Shown in pieces: positions 1,721-62,909 of a stretch of 64,000 bases of DNA (within the stretch, counting starts at the first letter, position 1; each line of letters opens with the position of its first letter). The notes beneath the pieces are model-generated. The model did no database searches and was not told where the DNA came from. It saw only the letters and a list, made by a program, of their open reading frames with translations. The stretch spans positions 135,819 to 199,818 of the forward strand of contig CAZADR010000001.1 of assembly GCA_964484005.1 (NCBI GenBank). Reading direction: 5' to 3'. A program made the position numbers and the translations under genes. The stretch comes from an uncultured Candidatus Saccharibacteria bacterium (GTDB taxonomy: Bacteria > Patescibacteriota > Minisyncoccia > Phycocordibacterales > UBA9973).

Positions 1721-2992
1721 ATGAATTTTTTTTCAACTATAAAAATGACTATTCGTAGTTTACTTTCTAGGAAAGGAAGGTCTTTTTTGACCATGCTTGG
1801 AATTATTATCGGAGTTGCTGGTGTAATCGTGATAATTTCGCTTGGTGCAGGAGCACAATCTTTGGTCTTAGGTCAGGTCAACAAACTTGGCTCTAATCTT
1901 CTTTCTATTCAGCCTGGTAAAAGTGATCCCAAGGGTCCACCTGCACAAGTGTTTGGTGTTGTGGTGACTAGTCTGATAGAGCTTGATGCTGAAGCTTTGC
2001 GCTCTTCTGCTCAAGTTCCACATGCTGTCGCTGTGAATTCTTTGGTTCGCGGAGTGGGAACAGTCGTTTGGCAAAACAAAAGTACAGATACAAGCTTTAC
2101 TGGCACAGATTATGGATATGCAGATGTGGTTAATTTTACGATGGAGTCTGGAGAATTTATCAGCGAAGAAGCAAATAAGGGTGGAACAAAAGTGGTAGTT
2201 TTGGGTTCTAAGGTTGCGGAAGCTTTGTTTGGTGGTACGGGAGTAAATCCAGTAGGACAAGTTATAAAAGTTAGGAGTAATTCTCAAGCAGATGCTTTTG
2301 GTGTTCCTTTGCGGGTGGTGGGAGTCATAGAAAAAAGAGGTAGTGCTTTTTTCCAAGATCAAGATGATCAGATATTTATTCCACTTTCTATTGCGCAAGG
2401 GCAGCTTTTGGGTATTCATTATTTGCAAGCAATAAACATAAAAGTAGATTCTGCCGATAATATTGAACAAACTATAAATGATGTAACTAATACATTAAAA
2501 CAGAGACATCGTATTTTAACAGATGATGATATTGATTTTACAGTAAGAAACCAAGCCGCGGCTGTAGATATTTTAAAGACCATTACCAATGCTCTCAGTT
2601 TGTTTTTAACATCCATGGCGGCGATTGCTTTGGCTGTCGGTGGTATTGGTATTTTGAATATTATGCTTGCGACAGTAGCAGAAAGAACTCGTGAGATAGG
2701 ATTACGCAAGGCAGTAGGGGCGACCAATAGCATGATTATGAGACAGTTTTTACTTGAAGCTGGAACCCTTACTTTTATAGGTGGATTAATTGGGATTGTC
2801 GTTGGTGTCATAATGTCTTATTTGATGGCAGTTTTAATGAAATATATGGGTTTTGATTGGGCTTTTGTTATTTCTATTACTTCTGTATTTCTCGCTGTCG
2901 GTGTGTCTGTTTTGACTGGTGTTATTTTTGGTCTTTATCCTTCGTTTAAAGCATCTAAGTTGAATCCGATTGATGCTCTTCGGTATGAATAA
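1721..2992 (+). CDS. ABC transporter permease, FtsX/MacB-like
   Basis: ATG at 1721 follows the stop of the ATPase gene. There is an N-terminal TM helix, a large periplasmic domain and a C-terminal FtsX-like four-helix bundle (ERTREIGLRKAVGA...). Confidence 0.85.
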   Translation: MNFFSTIKMTIRSLLSRKGRSFLTMLGIIIGVAGVIVIISLGAGAQSLVLGQVNKLGSNLLSIQPGKSDPKGPPAQVFGVVVTSLIELDAEALRSSAQVPHAVAVNSLVRGVGTVVWQNKSTDTSFTGTDYGYADVVNFTMESGEFISEEANKGGTKVVVLGSKVAEALFGGTGVNPVGQVIKVRSNSQADAFGVPLRVVGVIEKRGSAFFQDQDDQIFIPLSIAQGQLLGIHYLQAINIKVDSADNIEQTINDVTNTLKQRHRILTDDDIDFTVRNQAAAVDILKTITNALSLFLTSMAAIALAVGGIGILNIMLATVAERTREIGLRKAVGATNSMIMRQFLLEAGTLTFIGGLIGIVVGVIMSYLMAVLMKYMGFDWAFVISITSVFLAVGVSVLTGVIFGLYPSFKASKLNPIDALRYE

Positions 2993-3010: not shown

Positions 3011-4255
3011 ATGACAAAAGCACTCAAACAATCTATCAAAGCACTGAAAGCCAATAAAGGTAGGACTTTTCTAACTATGCTTGGGATTATTATCGGTATT
3101 GGTACGGTTGTTTTGGTATTGTCTGCTGGGGCTGGTTTTCGTTCATTGATTGATTCACAAGTTGCTACTCTTGGGAGTAATACTTTATTTGTGCAGACGC
3201 ATATTCCTTCTGCTACTAAAAAAAGAAGTGAGGCAACAGATGGTCCAGGAGGAGCTATTGCTGGTGTTGTAATAACTAGTTTTAAACAAAGAGATTTAAA
3301 TAGTATAAATAAATTACAAAACGTAGCTGGAAGTTACGGTATTATTACGGGCCAAGCTGTTGCTGTTTATAGAAATAATAAAAAAAGTTCTATATATTAT
3401 GGGGTTGGAGCGGAGAGGTTTGATATAGACAAGACTACATTGTCTTTTGGCAGATTTTTTACAAAAACTGAAGACAATGGTGGAGCGCAAGTAGCTATAC
3501 TTGGGTCTAGTATTGCTGAAGATCTCTTTGGGCAAGACAACCCTATTGGGAAATTATTTAGATTGGGTTCATTAAACTTTCAAGTAATAGGTGTTTACAC
3601 TCCACAGGGAGCACTTTCTGAAAACGATGGAATTGTTTTTGTGCCACTCAATACGGCTCAGAAAAAATTGCTTGGGGTAGACTATATCACCGTCGGAGTG
3701 GTGGCTTTAAATGATATAGATAAAGCTGATTCTACGGCTGAACAAATAAAAATGGTTATGCGAGATAATCACAATATAACTGATGAGGCTAAGGATGATT
3801 TTATTGTTCAAACACAGGCACAGGCCTTGGAAACTTTTAACGTAATTTTTGATGGAATTACATATTTACTTATTGCCATTGCTGCAATTTCTCTTTTGGT
3901 GGGGGGGGTTGGAATTATGAATATTATGTATGTCGTCGTGACAGAAAGAACCGCGGAAATTGGACTTAAAAAAGCTCTTGGGGCGAGAGAGGCAGATATA
4001 TTAAAAGAGTTTTTGGTTGAGGCCGTTATTGTGACTGTTTTGGGAGGGGTAATAGGAATAGGCCTCGGTGCGTTTTTGGGTTTTGTTGTATCTCTTGTCG
4101 CCAAAGGTGCCAACTTAGCTTGGACATTTTCTGTTCCTGTTTACGCAATTGTTCTTAGCTTTGGTGTCTCTGCTATTATTGGAATTTCTTTTGGAGTTTT
4201 TCCAGCTAGATCAGCGGCAAAAATGGATCCCATAGAGGCACTAAGATATGAATAA
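3011..4255 (+). CDS. ABC transporter permease, FtsX/MacB-like (second paralog)
   Basis: It is a paralog of the preceding gene and shares the same LTMLGIIIG... N-terminus and ERT.EIGL.KA.GA motif. Confidence 0.85.
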   Translation: MTKALKQSIKALKANKGRTFLTMLGIIIGIGTVVLVLSAGAGFRSLIDSQVATLGSNTLFVQTHIPSATKKRSEATDGPGGAIAGVVITSFKQRDLNSINKLQNVAGSYGIITGQAVAVYRNNKKSSIYYGVGAERFDIDKTTLSFGRFFTKTEDNGGAQVAILGSSIAEDLFGQDNPIGKLFRLGSLNFQVIGVYTPQGALSENDGIVFVPLNTAQKKLLGVDYITVGVVALNDIDKADSTAEQIKMVMRDNHNITDEAKDDFIVQTQAQALETFNVIFDGITYLLIAIAAISLLVGGVGIMNIMYVVVTERTAEIGLKKALGAREADILKEFLVEAVIVTVLGGVIGIGLGAFLGFVVSLVAKGANLAWTFSVPVYAIVLSFGVSAIIGISFGVFPARSAAKMDPIEALRYE

Positions 4256-4493: not shown

Positions 4494-4601
4494 TTAGCTT
4501 GCTAAATAATCCTTATTTTTAAGACAAATATGTTATTTATCTTCTTGTGGATAACTTTTTTGGTGTTTTTGGGTTTATAATATAAAGAATTATGTAAGTT
4601 T

Positions 4602-14250: not shown

Positions 14251-14294
14251 AAGGCTATCTTGTAGGTTAACAATTCTATGATATAATATATAGC

Positions 14295-25616: not shown

Positions 25617-27422
25617 ATGAATTTAAAAAATATTAGAAATTTTTCAATAATAGCGCATATTGACCACGGTAAAAGTACCTTGGCTGATAGAATGCTTGAA
25701 ATAACTCACACCATTGAAGTTCGTAAAATGCGTGACCAGGTACTAGACTCTATGGACTTAGAGCGAGAGAGGGGAATCACCATAAAGATGCAACCAGTCA
25801 GGATGGAATATAAAAGTCCTGCAGGTGAAAATTATGTTTTAAACCTTATTGATACTCCAGGACATATAGATTTCTCTTATGAAGTTTCTCGTGCCCTAAA
25901 GGCCGTAGAGGGCTCTATTTTATTAATAGACTCGACACAGGGAGTGCAGGCTCAAACCTTGACCACGCTTGCCTTGGCGCGTGAGGGAGGCCTTAAGATT
26001 ATACCTGTACTGTCCAAAATTGATTCTCCATTATCTAGAGTGGACGATATAAAAGAGGAAGTAGTAAAGCTTTTAAAATGCCCACCTGAGGAGATATTGC
26101 TTGTTTCTGGACGCACAGGTGAAGGAGTAGAAAATCTTTTACAAGAAGTTATAAAACGTATACCAGAACCAAAAGAAAGTTATCATGAGGAAAATGCATT
26201 ACGAGCCTTGGTTTTTGATTTTAAGTATTCAAATCATCGCGGGGTGATAGTTTTTGTTCGAGTACTAGACGGTAAGGTCAGAAAGGGTGACACTTTGCTT
26301 TTTGCTGTTTCTGGAGAAAAGTTTATTGCGCTTGAGGTGGGTACTTTTTCTCCCGAAGAGACCCCGAGAGATTCTCTCTCTAGTGGTGACACGGGATATA
26401 TTGTCACTGGTATTAAAAAGCCAGGTATAGCTTCAGTTGGAGACACAATAACTTTATCAAAGAATCCATTACCTGCTTTTCCTGGATACATGAAACCAAT
26501 GCCTGTAGTCTGGGCTTCGGTTTTTCCAGAAGATGCCGACGATTTTGCTGAGTTAAAGTTGTCTTTAGGAAAATTAAAACTTTCCGATTCTGCTTTTTCA
26601 TATGAAGAAGAAGCTTCGGGCTCCTTGGGTAAAGGTTTTCGTTGTGGGTTTCTCGGAATGTTGCATTTGGAAATAATTACAGAGAGGCTCAAGCGTGAAT
26701 TTAATTTGAAATTAGTGATAACTACACCCTCTATTACCTATGAAGTAATAATGAAGACTGGAAAAAGAGAAAAGATTTATTCACCTTATTTCTTTCCTGA
26801 CGATGGACTCATTGAGACAGTCTTAGAGCCTTGGGTTGATTTAAAAATAATTACTCCCGTAGATTATGTGGGTAATATTATGCAGCTTTTATTTGACCAT
26901 GAAGGAGAAGTAGGTGAGACGGATAACTTTGGAGACAACCGTGGTTCCATCTCTGTCAAAATGCCTCTCCGAGAATTGATGAGAAATTTCTTTGATGAAT
27001 TAAAGAGTACTTCTTCAGGTTATGGTTCTATCTCTTATGAAATAGGAGAGATGAGAGAAGCCAATGTCACCAGGCTCGATCTTTTGGTGGCAGACGAAGT
27101 GGTGCCTGCTTTTTCTAGAGTGGTTGCTAAAAAGAGAGCAGAAGAAGAAGCTGAAAAAGCAGTGATAAAACTTGCAGATTTATTGCCTAGGCAAATGTTT
27201 TCCATGAAAATCCAAGGGCGAGCCTTGGGTCGCATTATTTCTTCTCGTTCTCTTTCTGGAATGAAAAAAGATGTCACTCAGCATATGTACGGGGGGGACA
27301 TAACGCGTAAAATGAAACTTCGAGAAAAACAGAAAAAAGGAAAAAAGAAAATGAAAGAAAGAGGACGAGTAAATATTCCTCAGGAGGTATTTCTGAAAAT
27401 GATGCGTACGGGAGAAAATTAA
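25617..27422 (+). CDS. lepA: elongation factor 4 (LepA)
   Basis: The G-domain motif is IAHIDHGKSTLADR. The LepA C-terminal domain is present. The protein is 601 aa. Confidence 0.95.
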   Translation: MNLKNIRNFSIIAHIDHGKSTLADRMLEITHTIEVRKMRDQVLDSMDLERERGITIKMQPVRMEYKSPAGENYVLNLIDTPGHIDFSYEVSRALKAVEGSILLIDSTQGVQAQTLTTLALAREGGLKIIPVLSKIDSPLSRVDDIKEEVVKLLKCPPEEILLVSGRTGEGVENLLQEVIKRIPEPKESYHEENALRALVFDFKYSNHRGVIVFVRVLDGKVRKGDTLLFAVSGEKFIALEVGTFSPEETPRDSLSSGDTGYIVTGIKKPGIASVGDTITLSKNPLPAFPGYMKPMPVVWASVFPEDADDFAELKLSLGKLKLSDSAFSYEEEASGSLGKGFRCGFLGMLHLEIITERLKREFNLKLVITTPSITYEVIMKTGKREKIYSPYFFPDDGLIETVLEPWVDLKIITPVDYVGNIMQLLFDHEGEVGETDNFGDNRGSISVKMPLRELMRNFFDELKSTSSGYGSISYEIGEMREANVTRLDLLVADEVVPAFSRVVAKKRAEEEAEKAVIKLADLLPRQMFSMKIQGRALGRIISSRSLSGMKKDVTQHMYGGDITRKMKLREKQKKGKKKMKERGRVNIPQEVFLKMMRTGEN

Positions 27423-51870: not shown

Positions 51871-51988
51871 ATTACACCTCCTAACTTTCTACTGGTAGTA
51901 TAGCATACTTGAGGCTAAAAGTCAAGGAACAAATGGGCACATTTAACTTAAGAGTTATCCACAGTTTAGAGCTGGTGCTATTTAATTG

Positions 51989-56977: not shown

Positions 56978-56979
56978 AA

Positions 56980-57321
56980 TTATATTTTAAAATAATTTTT
57001 TAACACTTTTTTTACTTTTGCAATAATTTCATTATCTAACTCTCCAATTTTTCCGAGAATGACAGATTTATCTAAGGTAGCAATTTTAGCTGTTTTAATA
57101 ACAGATTTTAATTTTAAACCAGTCTTTTTGAAATCTTTATCTTTGGAATCAATTAAAATATCAAATTTATAAAGTTTATTTTTTGCAACAGAAGAAATAA
57201 AGCAAACAGTGACATCTTCACTCCTATCTTCCGTCGCAAGAATAAGGGCTGGACGAACTTTATTGTTTGATAGGTCTGTAAACGGAAAAGGAGTAAGAAC
57301 TATATGTCCGACTTTATGCAT
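56980..57321 (-). CDS. mazF: type II toxin, MazF/PemK family endoribonuclease
   Basis: GHIVLTPFPFTDLSNNKVRPALIL is a PemK signature. The protein is 113 aa. Confidence 0.8.
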   Translation of the reverse strand: MHKVGHIVLTPFPFTDLSNNKVRPALILATEDRSEDVTVCFISSVAKNKLYKFDILIDSKDKDFKKTGLKLKSVIKTAKIATLDKSVILGKIGELDNEIIAKVKKVLKNYFKI

Positions 57322-57568
57322 ATCTATGTTTTATGTCTTTAGTTGAGTAAATTTCGGGCTCATTTTCTAAAAAGTCAAAACTTTTAGAGTAGGTGTTGAT
57401 ATTTGTAATCAAGGAGAGTTTACCGTTCCAAAATGATGGAAAGGGAATAAGTACAACCTCCGGAACATTTCTGCGTCCAATGACGATAGGCTTGCGACTC
57501 GTGGCCACGATATTCACAATATCGCTTATTCTCTCCCTTGCTTCTGTTGTTGAAAGTGTTTTTATCAT
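57314..57568 (-). CDS. type II antitoxin, Phd/YefM family
   Basis: IKTLSTTEARERISDIVNIVATSRKPIVIGRRNVPEVVLIPF. The ATG (MIKTL) at 57568 is preferred over the upstream TTG. It overlaps the toxin gene by 8 nt. Confidence 0.7.
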   Translation of the reverse strand: MIKTLSTTEARERISDIVNIVATSRKPIVIGRRNVPEVVLIPFPSFWNGKLSLITNINTYSKSFDFLENEPEIYSTKDIKHRYA

Positions 57569-57671
57569 AGCAATTATATTGTACAAAATGTACAAATTAA
57601 AAGCAAGGTCCATTCTTAGAATAAGTGTGGATAACCCCCACACCTTTCATTTTATACCTTCAGATCATATA

Positions 57672-57935
57672 ATGGCTGTAATGTATTATGTATATGTTCT
57701 AAAAAGTCTCAAAGATGAAAAATTATATGTGGGTTCGACTAATGACCTGAAGCGAAGACTTTCGGAACACAACAACGGACTTAATCGTTCAACAAAAGCA
57801 AGACGTCCATTTGAACTTCGATATTATGAAGCTTGCACTAATGAAAGTGACGCCCGAACTAGAGAATATAACCTCAAGAAAGATGGAAAAGCACTTGGAC
57901 AACTAAAAAGAAGAATTTTCGAAAGTCTTAAATAA
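57672..57935 (+). CDS. GIY-YIG nuclease-family small protein (YhbQ/UPF0213-like)
   Basis: MYYVYVLKS...LYVGSTNDLKRRLSEHN...YNLK. The ORF-track N-terminal extension from 57393 is rejected because it overlaps the antitoxin gene. Confidence 0.75.
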   Translation: MAVMYYVYVLKSLKDEKLYVGSTNDLKRRLSEHNNGLNRSTKARRPFELRYYEACTNESDARTREYNLKKDGKALGQLKRRIFESLK

Positions 57936-57960
57936 AACGAAAGGTGTTGGGGATAACTTT

Positions 57961-57989
57961 TTCTTGCGGGGGGGGTTATATGTTAAAAT
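57961..57989 (+). promoter_or_regulatory. candidate promoter of the giant surface-protein gene, with a G8 homopolymer in the 17-nt spacer
   Basis: ttcttg (-35-like) at 57961, c-GGGGGGGG-ttatatgt, taaaat (-10) at 57984. The ATG is at 58023. Confidence 0.45.
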
Positions 57990-58022
57990 ATAAAGGCAAA
58001 GCAAGAGGCAAGAAAATAAATT

Positions 58023-61000
58023 ATGTTCAAGAAATTCTTTCTAAAAAAATTACTTATTTCAGGATTTTTTGTTTTCCTGCTTTTTGGTGTTTCTACTGCT
58101 TTTGCACAACAAATATCTATATTAGATTTATTCACTGCTTATAGAAATTATGTAGTCCAAGTTCCGACGCCTGAAAGGGTCGGAATCCCGACTTCAGAGA
58201 ACGTCGGGACTCCTCCCGTGGTAGTCATTGGTAATCAACCAGCTTCTGTCATCTACAGTCAAGGCCCTAGAGGTCCACAAGGAATCCAAGGCCTCACTGG
58301 CCCTACTGGGCCCCGTGGTCCATCTGGAAGTGATAGCTCCGGTGGAATCTCTCAAACTTTTTTTGATAATCAAGTAAATGCTATTCTAAACTCTATTGAA
58401 AATGGTTTATCCAATTTATCTAGTTCCATCTCTGAAAGTATCTCTACTGATTTACTCACAGTTTCAGGCAATACCACCGTCGGAGGCAATCTTACGGTAA
58501 CTGGCAACATCACAGGCAATGTCATCGGTACTATCAATCCTTCCTTTACCCTAGGTTCCATTCCTTTTCAAGGAGCCACTGGACTTGACGAAGACAATGC
58601 TAATTTATTTTGGGATGATACGAACAAGAGGTTGGGAATTGGTACGGCGACGCCGGCGAACCTTCTAGATCTCTATGGGCCAGTTACTGGAAGAGCACAG
58701 ATTCTTTTAAGAAATATAAATCCAAGCAACAGAGCACAGCTTGCTGTGCAGAACGATACAGGAAATAGTTTTATTGCACTTGAGTCTCATGGTAGTACTG
58801 AAGTCGGTACTATCTTTGGTAGCTTACAATTGGCTAATTCTATTTGGTTAAAAGGTCAAGTTGTAGATGTAAATGGTGTCATGGCTTTTGGTACTGCTAA
58901 TGGCATACCACTGGTTTTTGGAACTACTAATTTAGAACGCATGAGAATTACATCTGCCGGCAATGTTGGTATTGGGACGACGACGCCGGGTGGTATTCTT
59001 CATATTTTAAAAACAACTGGTTCTGCTATAATTGATCCCAAAATAACCTTGGATAATTTGTTCGATGGTGCTGGCACTGGTTCATCTTTAGATTTTTATC
59101 ACTATAGTGGTAGCACTCGTACTGCATCGGGTCGGCTGGGTTTCAAACGTTGGGCCTCGGGAGGGAATTTCGGTGAATTTTTCTTGGATATTGGCAGCAA
59201 TGGCACATTCGCTAATGTTGTAACAGCTGATGTAAATGGTAATTTTAATGTTCCCACCCTGAACACATCAAGTGGTGGAGTAAACTCTTCCAAAAATGAT
59301 GCAACAACGGATACCGTAGTAGATTTGTTAACTCTTACAAAAACCACGTCTGGTACGCCCGCCGCGGGACTCGGAAGTGCAATTCTCTTTAAGGGGGAAG
59401 TGAGCAACGGCCTAAGTTCTAATATGGCTCGCATCTCATCGGCGTGGATAAGTACTACTGCAGGCGTACCCAGTTCTTATCTTACATTTAGCACTTCAAA
59501 CTCTGGCACTGTTGCAGAAAAAGTCAGAATCGATAATGCCGGCAACGTCGGGATTGGGACGACGGGGCCAGACACCAAACTTTCTGTCGTAGGGAGTGTC
59601 ACTGTCAGTTCAAATCTTTTAATTGCCCCCACCGCCGCAACGACATTCACTTTAAGTTCTGATCCTATAAGAGTTCCAACAATTCCAGTTGCAGTATTTC
59701 AACCGACTAGTTCATTGACGGAAACTCGTTCAGCTATTCTTGATCTAATGCCTACATCGATAGATGGCAATCGTGCTGATAATCGTTTAGGTACAGGGGA
59801 ATCATGGATTGACTTAGTCGATAGGGATCTTCGCAATTCAGCAGACCCAAGCAGTTGGGCAGTTGGAAGAATGTCTATGTCTGCAGGTTCTGGTGGTCCT
59901 GGAACTAAGGGTGTATTTCAAGTTGGAGGTATTAAGAGTGGTACAGCTATTCAGCCACAACTAACTTTGACTGGAAATCAAATATGGTTTGACCCAGGAA
60001 CTTCTGGAGGATTCATGTGGGATGGGGACTTTTATTGGGGGTCTAGTTCATCTTTGTTGACTTACGGTAGCAGTCTTCTCAAAGCTAATGGAAATATATT
60101 AACCGCAGGTTCCGTCGGCATCGGGACGACGAGTCCGGGAAATCAATTAGATATTACAAATGGTTCAGGGTCTACCCAAATAAATGGCTCAGGTATTACA
60201 CAACTTAGAACAGCGGGAGAATCCATAACTGTTTCTGGTGGTATAAATATTACTTCTGCTGCAGGTATCGCTTTAACTGCACAAACTGGTCCATCACCTA
60301 GAATTAGATTTTTAACTAACTTTGGTGGTGCTGGGATTGAAAGAATGAGAATTGATGAAAACGGCAAAGTCGGGATAGGGACGGCGACGCCAAGAACTTT
60401 ATTAGAACTTGGCGGTGATGGAGCTATTTTAGCAACTGGAACCTTAAGTTTTGGTTGGACAGAACCAAACCTTGGCGCGGGAGTAAGAATGATGTGGTAT
60501 CCAAGAAAAGCGGCGTTTAGAGCTGGAAGACAAACTTTAACAGACTGGGATGATGCAAATATTGGTTATTATTCAACAGCATTTGGAAATACGACAAAAG
60601 CCAGTGGTCAGGGTTCCTTCGTAGTAGGACAAAGCACAATCGCCAGTGGTACTAATTCCACCGCAATGGGAAATACCACAACAGCCAGCGGTAGTGCTTC
60701 CACCGCAATGGGAGATGGCACAATCGCCAGTGGTGCTCAATCCACCGCGATGGGAATTTATACAACAGCCAGTGGTAGCTATTCCACCGCGATGGGAATT
60801 TATACAACAGCCAGTGGTGATATGTCCACCGCAATGGGCTATTTCACAACTGCGGCAAGCTACTTGTCGGTTGCGTTAGGTACATATAATGTCGGCGGAG
60901 GAACAGCCGCAAGCTGGGTAGCCACAGACCCATTATTTGAAATTGGAATAGGGACAGGCGCGGGAGCTAAAGCAAACGCCTTAACTGTATTAAAAAATGG

Positions 61001-62156
61001 AAGTGTCGGAGTTCAGACAGCGACCCCCACCGCCAACCTCCAAGTCGCTCAAGGCACAGCAGGTGCAGGCACAGTTTCAACTCCTGGAAGTTCTACTACT
61101 TTAACTGGTGTAGGAACACAATTTACAAATACATTTAAGGTTGGTGATACACTTACAGTAACAGGAGAAACCAGCAGAACTATTGCCACCATTACCAGTG
61201 ATACAGTCTTGGATGTTACGGTTGCTTTTTCAGCCACTGCTCGTTCAGCAGTAATTTATACGCTAGCAGGCGGAACAAGATTTTCTGTATTGGGGAATGG
61301 GAATGTGGGGATTGGCAGAACAGCTCCTGCTTACGCTCTGGATGTCCTAGCCTCTGGCACAGGAGTCATCGCTCGCTTCAATAGCACCAATGCTACTGGT
61401 TGTACTCTCGCAGATGGAGGAACCATCACTTGTACTTCAGATGAAAGAATGAAAAAAAATATAGAAGATATCACTTATGGTTTAGATACTCTAAGAGGTT
61501 TAAGACCCGTATTATTCAACTGGAAATATGAAGATGATACAACATCTAAAAACCTAGGTTTCATCGCTCAAGAAGTGGAAGCTTTAGTGCCTAAACTAAT
61601 AGCCACTGATGAAAACGGCATGAAGTCTCTAAACACTACTGCCATGGTGCCTATTTTAACAAAAGCGATCCAAGAGATGGACTTACAGATTACTGAAATT
61701 TCTAATCTTGAAAAACCTAATACTTGGAGGGATAGTATTGTGGCTTGGTTTGCAAATGCAGAAAATAGTATCACTCGTATATTTACTGGAGAAGTTTGTC
61801 TCACAGAGGCAGGGCAGGAGACAGTATGTTTAAATCGCACAGAATTACAATCCCTGAAAGCGTTAATTTCCTCTCCTCCTTCCGGAGGAGGTGGCACTAT
61901 GACAACCCCAACCTGTACACTTCCGCAAGTATTGGTAAATAATGTTTGCACCGATCCAGCGCCTGTAGTTCCAACTTGTGTTCTCCCTCAAACTTTAGTA
62001 AATAATGTTTGTACAGACCCGGTAGTAGAACCACCGACTTGTATCGCTCCGCAAACTTTAGTAAACAATGTTTGTACGGATCCGACTCCTCCAGTGCCAG
62101 TTGTAGAGCCAATAGTAGAACCTGCCCCTGCGCCAATTTCTGAACCAGTAATTTAA
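58023..62156 (+). CDS. giant secreted surface protein (1377 aa) with a C-terminal Peptidase_S74 intramolecular-chaperone domain and three kinds of internal repeat
   Basis: The signal peptide is LLFGVSTAFAQQ. A collagen Gly-X-Y run is at nt 58262-58330. There are at least five GIGT(T/A)(T/S)P repeats. An adhesin-head-like (STAMGxxTTASGx)x6 block is present. The S74 motif TSDERMKKNIEDITYGLDTLRGLRPVLFNWK starts near nt 61438. There are three copies of a C-terminal Cys repeat PTC.LPQ.LVNNVCTDP. Confidence 0.8.
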   Translation: MFKKFFLKKLLISGFFVFLLFGVSTAFAQQISILDLFTAYRNYVVQVPTPERVGIPTSENVGTPPVVVIGNQPASVIYSQGPRGPQGIQGLTGPTGPRGPSGSDSSGGISQTFFDNQVNAILNSIENGLSNLSSSISESISTDLLTVSGNTTVGGNLTVTGNITGNVIGTINPSFTLGSIPFQGATGLDEDNANLFWDDTNKRLGIGTATPANLLDLYGPVTGRAQILLRNINPSNRAQLAVQNDTGNSFIALESHGSTEVGTIFGSLQLANSIWLKGQVVDVNGVMAFGTANGIPLVFGTTNLERMRITSAGNVGIGTTTPGGILHILKTTGSAIIDPKITLDNLFDGAGTGSSLDFYHYSGSTRTASGRLGFKRWASGGNFGEFFLDIGSNGTFANVVTADVNGNFNVPTLNTSSGGVNSSKNDATTDTVVDLLTLTKTTSGTPAAGLGSAILFKGEVSNGLSSNMARISSAWISTTAGVPSSYLTFSTSNSGTVAEKVRIDNAGNVGIGTTGPDTKLSVVGSVTVSSNLLIAPTAATTFTLSSDPIRVPTIPVAVFQPTSSLTETRSAILDLMPTSIDGNRADNRLGTGESWIDLVDRDLRNSADPSSWAVGRMSMSAGSGGPGTKGVFQVGGIKSGTAIQPQLTLTGNQIWFDPGTSGGFMWDGDFYWGSSSSLLTYGSSLLKANGNILTAGSVGIGTTSPGNQLDITNGSGSTQINGSGITQLRTAGESITVSGGINITSAAGIALTAQTGPSPRIRFLTNFGGAGIERMRIDENGKVGIGTATPRTLLELGGDGAILATGTLSFGWTEPNLGAGVRMMWYPRKAAFRAGRQTLTDWDDANIGYYSTAFGNTTKASGQGSFVVGQSTIASGTNSTAMGNTTTASGSASTAMGDGTIASGAQSTAMGIYTTASGSYSTAMGIYTTASGDMSTAMGYFTTAASYLSVALGTYNVGGGTAASWVATDPLFEIGIGTGAGAKANALTVLKNGSVGVQTATPTANLQVAQGTAGAGTVSTPGSSTTLTGVGTQFTNTFKVGDTLTVTGETSRTIATITSDTVLDVTVAFSATARSAVIYTLAGGTRFSVLGNGNVGIGRTAPAYALDVLASGTGVIARFNSTNATGCTLADGGTITCTSDERMKKNIEDITYGLDTLRGLRPVLFNWKYEDDTTSKNLGFIAQEVEALVPKLIATDENGMKSLNTTAMVPILTKAIQEMDLQITEISNLEKPNTWRDSIVAWFANAENSITRIFTGEVCLTEAGQETVCLNRTELQSLKALISSPPSGGGGTMTTPTCTLPQVLVNNVCTDPAPVVPTCVLPQTLVNNVCTDPVVEPPTCIAPQTLVNNVCTDPTPPVPVVEPIVEPAPAPISEPVI
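60657..60860 (+). repeat. about six tandem 30-bp repeats (tccaccgcaatggg...acaacagccagtggt...) inside the giant gene
   Basis: The repeated coding units are STAMGNTTTASGSA / STAMGDGTIASGAQ / STAMGIYTTASGSY / STAMGIYTTASGDM / STAMGYFTTAASY. Confidence 0.6.
61908..62087 (+). repeat. three tandem ~57-bp repeats at the 3' end of the giant gene (Cys-containing peptide repeats)
   Basis: ccaacctgtacacttccgcaagtattggtaaataatgtttgcaccgatcca... is repeated with small variations. Confidence 0.6.
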
Positions 62157-62401
62157 ATTTCTCCTATAATCTTTTTGAGCCAGTTTTCTATTCTTTTTAT
62201 TACTTTATGTAAATGGGGGTATTTTTCTGTGTGTTTATCTGCCCAAAGTTGAGCTTTTGGAAATCTGGAAAATAAAAGTAGAAATCCTACAGCCAGAAAA
62301 ATAATTCCTTGTAAAAAGGGAAGTACCAAGCCCAAAAGTCCAAAAATTATAAAAATAATACCAATAGATAAAACAAGAATTTTTTTCATTTTCTTTTTCA
62401 T
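62153..62401 (-). CDS. small inner-membrane protein (YbaN/DUF454-like)
   Basis: Two TM helices (GLLGLVLPFLQGIIFLAVGFLLLFSRFPKAQ), then a basic tail. Confidence 0.45.
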   Translation of the reverse strand: MKKKMKKILVLSIGIIFIIFGLLGLVLPFLQGIIFLAVGFLLLFSRFPKAQLWADKHTEKYPHLHKVIKRIENWLKKIIGEI

Positions 62402-62429
62402 TTATATATTAAATATATTTTAAAATATA

Positions 62430-62909
62430 TTATTCAAACAAGACTGGAATAGTGAGTGCATCGTCATGTTCAGGTAGGCCAGACGCATTGTCTTTTCTTA
62501 ATATTAGAGTACCAGATTTCATGCCTGCTGGTATTTCAAAATTGAGGGTGGTGGTAAAAGGTACAAATTCTTCTGTCATCCATTCTCCCTCTGCTGTGGC
62601 ATACCACTCGGCTATTTTTACTCCATTTACATCTTGTAGTTCGACGGGGAAGCTAGCTTCAAAATACCAGTTACCTCTCGCTTCCCCTTTTATCACGAGT
62701 GGGCTTTTTATAACTTCATTTGGCCTAGGTGTAGTAAGGCGAATAAGATTTGCTTTTTCCAATTCATTTCCCTGGTCTACTACTTTAACATCTTCTATGA
62801 TTTCTTCTTTAATTATTAACTTCCCTGTTTTTGTTTTAAAATAAAGTACAACAAAGACCAAACTAATAATAGTAATAATGATTATGATTATAGGTAATGT
62901 TTTTCTCAT
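62430..62909 (-). CDS. membrane-anchored Gmad2-type immunoglobulin-like domain protein
   Basis: An N-terminal TM is present, and SPLVIKGEARGNWYFEASFPVELQDVNGVKIAEWYATAEGEWMTEEFVPF matches the Gmad2 Ig-like pattern (from memory). Confidence 0.55.
   Translation of the reverse strand: MRKTLPIIIIIITIISLVFVVLYFKTKTGKLIIKEEIIEDVKVVDQGNELEKANLIRLTTPRPNEVIKSPLVIKGEARGNWYFEASFPVELQDVNGVKIAEWYATAEGEWMTEEFVPFTTTLNFEIPAGMKSGTLILRKDNASGLPEHDDALTIPVLFE

Follow-up and report, generated by a model that had tools for sequence, protein, structure and literature searches.

A poly-G tract in a conserved promoter cassette of Patescibacteria fibre genes: a candidate for homopolymer promoter phase variation

Does a run of eight G residues upstream of a giant surface-protein gene act as a phase-variation switch in a bacterium of the Patescibacteria? 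The locus that raises this question lies in a stretch of 64,000 nucleotides of an uncultured bacterium (here called the window), and in a first-pass annotation the run was proposed to sit in a 17-nt spacer between a -35-like hexamer and a -10 hexamer, where gain or loss of a G by slipped-strand mispairing would alter promoter strength. The CPR/Patescibacteria are tiny, mostly uncultured bacteria that are thought to be host-attached and have few transcription factors, and variation of their surfaces is poorly understood. Homopolymer-based bet-hedging is used by Neisseria, Bordetella, Campylobacter and Mycoplasma; a full-text literature search for phase variation in Patescibacteria brought up one unrelated paper and no such case.

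The G tract and the gene downstream of it

Read directly from the window, positions 57961-57989 have the arrangement TTCTTG-C-GGGGGGGG-TTATATGT-TAAAAT, and both the letters and the coordinates of the arrangement and its G8 run, as previously described, were borne out. The tract lies 47 nt upstream of the ATG at 58023, and the -10 hexamer ends 33 nt before the same ATG. The features of the locus are the following:

56979-62153: strain-specific island of about 5.2 kb with a PemK/Phd pair, a GIY-YIG gene and the fibre gene
57632-57655 and 57932-57955: 24-nt inverted repeats flanking the GIY-YIG gene, matching at 21 of 24 positions
57672-57935, plus strand: small GIY-YIG gene, immediately 5' of the fibre promoter
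57940-57957, plus strand: upstream box AAAGGTGTTGGGGATAAC, overlapping the right arm of the GIY-YIG inverted repeat
57961-57966, plus strand: TTCTTG, the '-35-like' hexamer of the first-pass annotation, matching TTGACA at two of six positions and unconserved among the cassette copies
57964-57967, plus strand: TTGC directly before the tract, conserved between the two paralogues of this genome and a candidate partial -35 (TTGCGG)
57968-57975, plus strand: G8 homopolymer, the length-variable part of the cassette, roughly -28 to -21 from the predicted transcription start
57976-57992, plus strand: invariant, nearly palindromic 17-mer TTATATGTTAAAATATA, the same in all three cassette copies and holding the extended -10
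57995-57997, plus strand: predicted transcription start, 6-8 nt past the -10
58003-58008, plus strand: Shine-Dalgarno-like AAGAGG, 14 nt before the ATG
58023-62156, plus strand: fibre gene, 1377 aa

Besides the promoter tract, the window holds these G runs of at least six:

3901-3908: G8, encoding VGGV in a MacB_PCD/FtsX ABC permease
27291-27297: G7, encoding YGGD in LepA
within a PBP gene: two G6 runs

Thus five G runs of at least six are present, four of them coding, and no C run exceeds five; the tract at 57968-57975 is the only non-coding G or C run of at least six in the 64-kb window. The earlier remark that other long G runs are found inside genes was confirmed, as all remaining runs of at least six fall in open reading frames, VGGV and YGGD among them. 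Under a first-order Markov model, 0.43 G runs of at least eight are expected in the whole window and about 0.04 G plus C runs of this length in its approximately 5.3 kb (8%) of non-coding DNA, and with a GC content of 37% in the window the G8 tract is indeed conspicuous, as had been noted for an AT-rich genome. The tract is real and non-random, and its origin by chance is unlikely. The coding G8 at 3901-3908, equal in length to the promoter tract, is a potential frameshift hotspot and is usable as an internal control for slippage or sequencing error.

The product of the downstream gene carries a Sec-type signal peptide (MFKKFFLKKLLISGFFVFLLFGVSTAFA before QQ), a short collagen GXY stretch (collagen-like neck), many 'GNVGIGTT'-type beta-repeats, YadA_head repeats (E = 2.6e-13), a Peptidase_S74 intramolecular-chaperone domain (E = 9.8e-15) and a Cys-repeat tail, and is, by these predicted features, a secreted, trimeric-fibre-like protein. 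No orthologue was found for it among 5.8 billion proteins. A paralogue of 1333 aa (P0003) is recorded on the same 218,504-bp contig as the fibre gene of the window. The two fibres have the N-terminal region in common (signal peptide, collagen, neck) and are near-identical in the S74 region over about 120 aa, while their middles are divergent; conserved ends with a divergent middle are the architecture expected of exchangeable receptor-binding proteins. The placement of the tract 5' of a giant surface gene stands, a secreted fibre with a paralogue being a surface multigene target.

Copies of the promoter cassette

The region 5' of the paralogue (locus L005) reads ...CCCTTTGC-GGGGGGGGG-TTATATGTTAAAATATATAGG..., with the ATG 23 nt after the -10, and a G9 run (2297-2305 of L005) occupies the same place in the cassette as the G8 run of the window. 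In short form the cassette, of about 30 nt, is (TTGC)-Gn-TTATATG-TTAAAAT-ATA, following the pattern Gn-TTATATGTTAAAAT. Across TTGC-Gn-TTATATGTTAAAATATA a single-G indel is the only difference between the window and the paralogue, whereas outside the cassette the two sequences agree at 35% of positions in the 5' flank and at 23% in the 5'UTR; over their first 88 coding nt the two fibre genes are 66% identical. A difference of one G between identical flanks implies that the tract has slipped at least once (8 vs 9), and the perfect conservation of the block amid such dissimilar surroundings points to selection on it. Moreover, a single-G indel between paralogues is the mark that a slippage-prone tract leaves in a multigene family of surface proteins, and the retention of an uninterrupted G8 and G9 at 37% GC argues for selection. 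Tracts of G8-G9 are at the low end of the lengths known for high-rate switching.

A third copy was found 5' of P0008 (1402 aa) in the MAG GCA_964553015.1 (locus L015), where P0008 is the positional orthologue of the second fibre in the arrangement TGT-fibre-OrnDC-DUF192. The upstream region there is AAAGGTGTTGTGTATAAC-TTTC-T9-G5-TTATATGTTAAAATATAT. The tract lengths of the three copies differ (G8 in the window, G9 in the paralogue, G5 in L015) and the 17-mer is shared, so that GGGGG-TTATATGTTAAAATATA is invariant in three of three copies, including the one from another genome. The conserved part of the upstream box, AAAGGTGTTGKGKATAAC, is located 18 nt from TTATATG in both the window and L015, part of the G run having been replaced by substitution with the total spacing preserved, which points to a constraint on spacing and not to free length variation. 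No TTG is present at any -35 position in L015. The 10-mer TGGGGATAAC is inverted in L005 and lies at a different distance from the promoter. Taken together, the sequence comparisons argue for the tract as part of a conserved promoter module of the fibre genes that is seemingly under selection.

The same comparisons bear on the main rival explanation, namely that the G run serves as an unchanging contact or structural spacer in a static promoter/operator element under conventional regulation, with 8, 9 and 5 as fixed evolutionary differences; in a variant of it, a regulator could contact the near-palindromic GGGGG-TTATATGTTAAAATATA block. We consider this a serious alternative, though a somewhat doubtful one. 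It would account for the invariance of GGGGG plus the 17-mer in all three copies and across genomes, for the near self-complementarity of the 17-mer (two mismatches to its own reverse strand) and for the 18-nt spacing to the upstream box that the window and L015 maintain despite substitutions; a consensus tract length that is stable in every assembly and an extended -10 that makes a spacer-length switch less necessary are also in line with it. It fits less well with in-genome copies that differ by exactly one G between two identical flanks, as expected of a tract that has slipped at least once, and an operator would not obviously need eight to nine uninterrupted Gs at this GC content; furthermore, no regulator gene adjoins either fibre locus.

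Exact scans with GGGGGGTTATATGTTAAAAT gave two matches in GTDB genomes, both unrelated (Clostridium and a Bacteroidales MAG), one unrelated 1.2-kb contig in JGI metagenomes and zero matches in IMG/VR, where the shorter pattern GGGGTTATATGTTAAAATA matched once, within a coding region; with exact patterns, these collections yielded no related cassette beyond the three copies. The more distant fibre homologues P0004, P0012 and P0015 are preceded by neither the cassette nor a promoter homopolymer. P0007, which is cut at a contig start, and P0002, for which no DNA is on file, were left out of the promoter comparison.

Some sequences resemble the cassette elsewhere. In two unrelated gut MAGs, a Clostridium and a Bacteroidales (L009 1517-1545, minus strand, and L010 3140-3175) a run of six to nine Gs is followed by TTATATGTTAAAATAATGC; the stretch common to both amounts to 25 nt counting the common G6 and is probably a coincidence. 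The Clostridium copy has a textbook promoter, TTGACG-16-TAAAAT, with eight of the nine Gs in the spacer. In the window, a perfect 18-nt AT palindrome (ATATATTTTAAAATATAT, 62413-62430) between the 82-aa and Gmad2 genes resembles the cassette 17-mer with two mismatches.

Tract length and promoter geometry

The exact fibre protein was present in the assemblies of four ENA samples, and over up to 9 kb these match the window with 100% identity. The tract of the first fibre gene was G8, as in the window, in three of three assemblies that reach it (L001-L003), and that of the second was G9 in two of two (L005 and L006). Length heterogeneity at the locus, which a switch would predict, was thus not borne out: no same-locus polymorphism was detected at the consensus level of these clonal assemblies, in which minority alleles would be invisible. 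As the assemblies are 100% identical representatives of one clone, this test of length invariance has little power.

The recurrence of the tract in independent assemblies was the reason to reject an artefact of sequencing or assembly, such as poly-G produced by two-colour Illumina chemistry, which we consider highly improbable: the window aside, the identical G8 with identical flanks is found in the assemblies of three independent samples, the G9 of the paralogue was reproduced in two, and the tract is internal to long contigs. A point in favour of an artefact is that one further contig (L004, ERZ27247830) begins at 57995, 20 nt 3' of the tract. The beginning of this contig coincides with the predicted transcription start, and the contig breaks again at 62215, about 60 nt beyond the right edge of the island; low coverage or strain heterogeneity could be responsible for these breaks.

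With regard to the promoter elements, the -10 hexamer TAAAAT (57984-57989) is preceded by TGT (TG at 57981-57982, T at 57983) and therefore belongs to an extended -10 (TGnTAAAAT, TGTTAAAAT), the TGn of which had been left unmentioned in the first-pass annotation. The TG is positioned one base 5' of the hexamer, at -15/-14, and the hexamer, with A at position 2 and T at position 6, matches the consensus at five of six positions. TGnTAnAAT occurs 5-9 nt 5' of the ATG in many window genes, and TTATATGTTAAAATATA with at most three mismatches was counted 11 times in the window against 1.3 expected. The good -10 box that had been recognized just 3' of the tract is conserved and fits the promoter idiom of the genome itself. 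Extended -10 elements that end 5-9 nt before the ATG make the mRNAs look leaderless, a trait that appears widespread in this genome. Examples are at 14279, 21447, 27984, 34510, 42241, 62939, 62924 (minus strand) and 41419 (minus strand); the fibre genes, with 23-33 nt from the -10 to the ATG, are exceptions to the short leaders.

The proposed -35 fared worse. Apart from its poor match to the consensus, TTCTTG corresponds to CTTTGC in the paralogue and to Ts only in L015, and from this comparison it appears to be outside the conserved cassette design. A consensus promoter scan made no call at the fibre promoter. The spacer of 17 nt is correct when counted from TTCTTG, but counting from the conserved TTG gives 14 nt with G8 and 15 nt with G9, these being the distances from TTGCGG to the -10 here and in the paralogue, respectively. 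In the other extended -10 promoters of the window a TTG at the -35 position, where present, is located at 16 nt (six sites) or 17 nt (two sites); the fibre promoter is the only gene-proximal promoter of the window with TTG at 14 nt, and none has it at 15 nt. Additionally, a long homopolymer is missing from the upstream spacer of every other window promoter. With a TGn extended -10, a -35 is usually dispensable. Since extended -10 promoters are generally functional without a -35, spacer length may matter little.

The dinucleotide GG at 57995-57996, at the predicted start, is common to the window and the in-genome paralogue. A translational or frameshift switch was rejected on the basis of an in-frame TAA (58017-58019) between tract and ATG, which leaves the tract without a translational role. 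Other candidate functions were likewise dismissed: the prediction of intrinsic terminators placed none for the GIY-YIG gene at the tract, comparison with known RNA families (Rfam) gave only a sub-threshold chance match, and as DNA structure the 371-nt fold was no better than shuffles. The intergenic RNA folds modestly (z = -2.5) via pairing of TTTTCTTGC with GCAAGAAAA, which was not found in the upstream region of the paralogue. These sequences form a 9-nt inverted repeat (57959-57967/58009-58017) that encloses the G tract, the -10 and AAGAGG, and the pairing could form only in read-through transcripts from the GIY-YIG gene.

Our preferred explanation, held tentatively and with slightly less than even confidence, is a contingency promoter in which the G run is the slippage-prone, variable part of the fibre-gene cassette. 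Following this, we propose that a small family of secreted, trimeric-fibre-like surface proteins is expressed from the cassette, that the most likely transcription start is some 7 nt past the extended -10 (TGTTAAAAT), so that the G run would span roughly -28 to -21, and that the extended -10 supplies basal transcription. Slipped-strand mispairing would add or remove Gs and thereby shift upstream contacts, i.e., the TTGC half-site and/or the box AAAGGTGTTGGGGATAAC, relative to the -10, so that transcription of one fibre gene may go up or down without the other. If TTGC is used as a -35 half-site, its TTG at 14 nt (G8) and 15 nt (G9), as compared to the 16 nt usual in this genome, predicts sub-optimal, basal expression of both genes, and G10 would restore the consensus geometry of 16 nt. 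The phase-variation switch as first proposed is therefore upheld in part: a tract in a conserved promoter, a one-G difference between paralogues and a surface target speak for it, while the lack of same-locus variation in the consensus assemblies, the poor -35 and the extended -10 speak against it.

Among known systems, the closest analogue is the fim family of Bordetella (fim2, fim3, fimX, fimN), in which a conserved 'fim box' is combined with a C-stretch. The lengths of the C-stretches are paralogue-specific within the conserved promoter element, and in fimX C7 as compared to C8 changes the transcript 3.8-fold (PMC1891110). As in fim, paralogous surface-appendage genes are preceded here by a G/C homopolymer just 5' of the -10 with lengths specific to each paralogue (G8, G9 and G5); the tract is shorter than those of fim2 and fim3 (C12-C22) and similar to that of fimX (C7-C8). 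The differences from fim are that no BvgA-like activator or mapped binding site is known at this locus, that no within-locus polymorphism was seen in the consensus assemblies, and that S74-capped fibres of a Patescibacteria MAG take the place of chaperone-usher fimbriae.

Next in similarity, together with the vlp genes described below, are porA (poly-G) and opc (poly-C) of Neisseria meningitidis, where a G/C homopolymer is found in the promoter of a surface-protein gene and where one-base steps of the spacer between -35 and -10 reportedly grade expression. These promoters have a recognizable -35 and a mapped start, whereas here the -35 is doubtful (TTG at 14-15 nt), the start is predicted, and the -10 is of the extended type that may not need a -35. 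The vlp genes of Mycoplasma hyorhinis are said to have a poly-A promoter spacer of gene-specific length within near-identical promoter and signal-peptide regions. The present locus resembles them in a variable surface-protein family of a small-genome, host-dependent bacterium with a conserved cassette and 5' coding end, and is unlike them in its poly-G instead of poly-A, in having only two family members seen in the genome and in its unrelated proteins. Finally, the fibre promoter shares its idiom with the ordinary extended -10 (TGn) sigma-70 promoters in front of many window genes, and these lack a long homopolymer in the upstream spacer. Features of phase variation found at the locus are the tract length (G8/G9), the length differences between copies and the surface multigene target, and by analogy it is a candidate, as yet unproven, for a system that works like homopolymer promoter phase variation.

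More speculatively still, Patescibacteria (CPR) episymbionts might carry attachment fibres on islands, each behind a portable cassette whose poly-G serves as an independent stochastic switch or volume control, a generalization that we regard as doubtful but worth stating. If true, the CPR radiation would have its first described contingency-locus (phase-variation) system and, with it, a route to rapid change of host-attachment specificity despite minimal regulatory capacity, and swappable CPR fibre genes would have gained the bet-hedging device known from Neisseria, Bordetella, Campylobacter and Mycoplasma. Even a static tract would leave CPR fibre genes with a promoter/operator motif that is conserved and well defined.

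G-rich spacers beside the -10 may be a wider habit of the lineage. The motif GTGTGGGGGT(T)AT recurs at about 9745-9775 of L005, at about 6235-6265 of L015 and at 57631-57643 (minus strand) of the window. In two genomes it forms the spacer of the promoter of the decarboxylase gene (TTGACT-17-TATACT), and on the minus strand 5' of the GIY-YIG gene it forms a hairpin (GTGTGG/CCACAC).

Islands, the GIY-YIG gene and fibre repeats

In relatives with MurF proteins 92% and 83% identical, murF is directly followed by the 82-aa gene and the Gmad2 gene, which identifies about 56979-62153 of the window as a strain-specific island. Similarly, TGT abuts OrnDC (ornithine/arginine decarboxylase) in a relative whose TGT is 91% identical, so that the second fibre gene also lies in an island, of about 7.9 kb (about 1815-9720 of L005). 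As the nearest relatives lack both fibre islands, an orthologous comparison of the tract is impossible. The nearest MurF and TGT homologues carry the names Nomurabacteria, Paceibacterota or Minisyncoccia, by which the organism is assigned to Patescibacteria/CPR, with a Paceibacteria/Nomurabacteria-like genome. The PemK/Phd pair of the window island, a toxin-antitoxin pair, is encoded 5' of the tract on the minus strand, and the island of L005 also bears PDDEXK, Cas4/RNase_H-like and small phage-scaffold-like genes.

This setting raises the possibility that the tract is a neutral by-product that has no effect on expression, either a remnant of duplication or gene conversion or a scar beside the GIY-YIG element. 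A distance of 12 nt separates the tract from the right inverted-repeat arm at the GIY-YIG gene, the islands that carry the fibre genes look mobile, and only three copies are known, all of which would be in accordance with this explanation. We nevertheless judge it unlikely: perfect conservation of the cassette between flanks of 23-35% identity speaks for selection on the block, a GIY-YIG gene is absent beside the copies in L005 and L015, and under AT-biased mutation a G8 or G9 free of selection should decay.

An invertible promoter of the fimS/hin type was also considered and rejected, given that the 24-nt inverted repeat brackets the GIY-YIG gene and not the promoter, that the neighbours are PemK, Phd and GIY-YIG only, and that a single orientation was present in all assemblies.

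The GIY-YIG gene has a counterpart of 61% identity that adjoins another fibre gene on an unrelated metagenome contig (L018) and is also bracketed by inverted repeats (6665-6694/6924-6953, 30 nt, 80% complementary). The GIY-YIG unit may thus be a small selfish element, bounded by inverted repeats, that associates with giant surface-protein genes.

The sequence TGTGGATAAC, which contains a perfect DnaA-box complement (TTATCCACA), was noticed in three intergenic regions, i.e., 5' of a PAS histidine kinase gene, near the mraZ operon and 5' of the GIY-YIG gene. It or its variant is found at 4546-4555, 51954-51963 (minus strand), 57626-57635 and 57948-57957 of the window and at 2263-2272 (minus strand) of L005; the number of such sites in the window is by itself insignificant (6 vs 3 expected). 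The variant TGGGGATAAC precedes both fibre promoters in opposite orientations.

Within the fibre gene, the YadA_head region (60635-60838) contains tandem repeats with a 42-nt offset that are 80% self-identical, and three tandem Cys repeats (TC.LPQ.LVNNVCTDP), which are also present in the paralogue, are encoded at the C-terminus (about 61900-62150).
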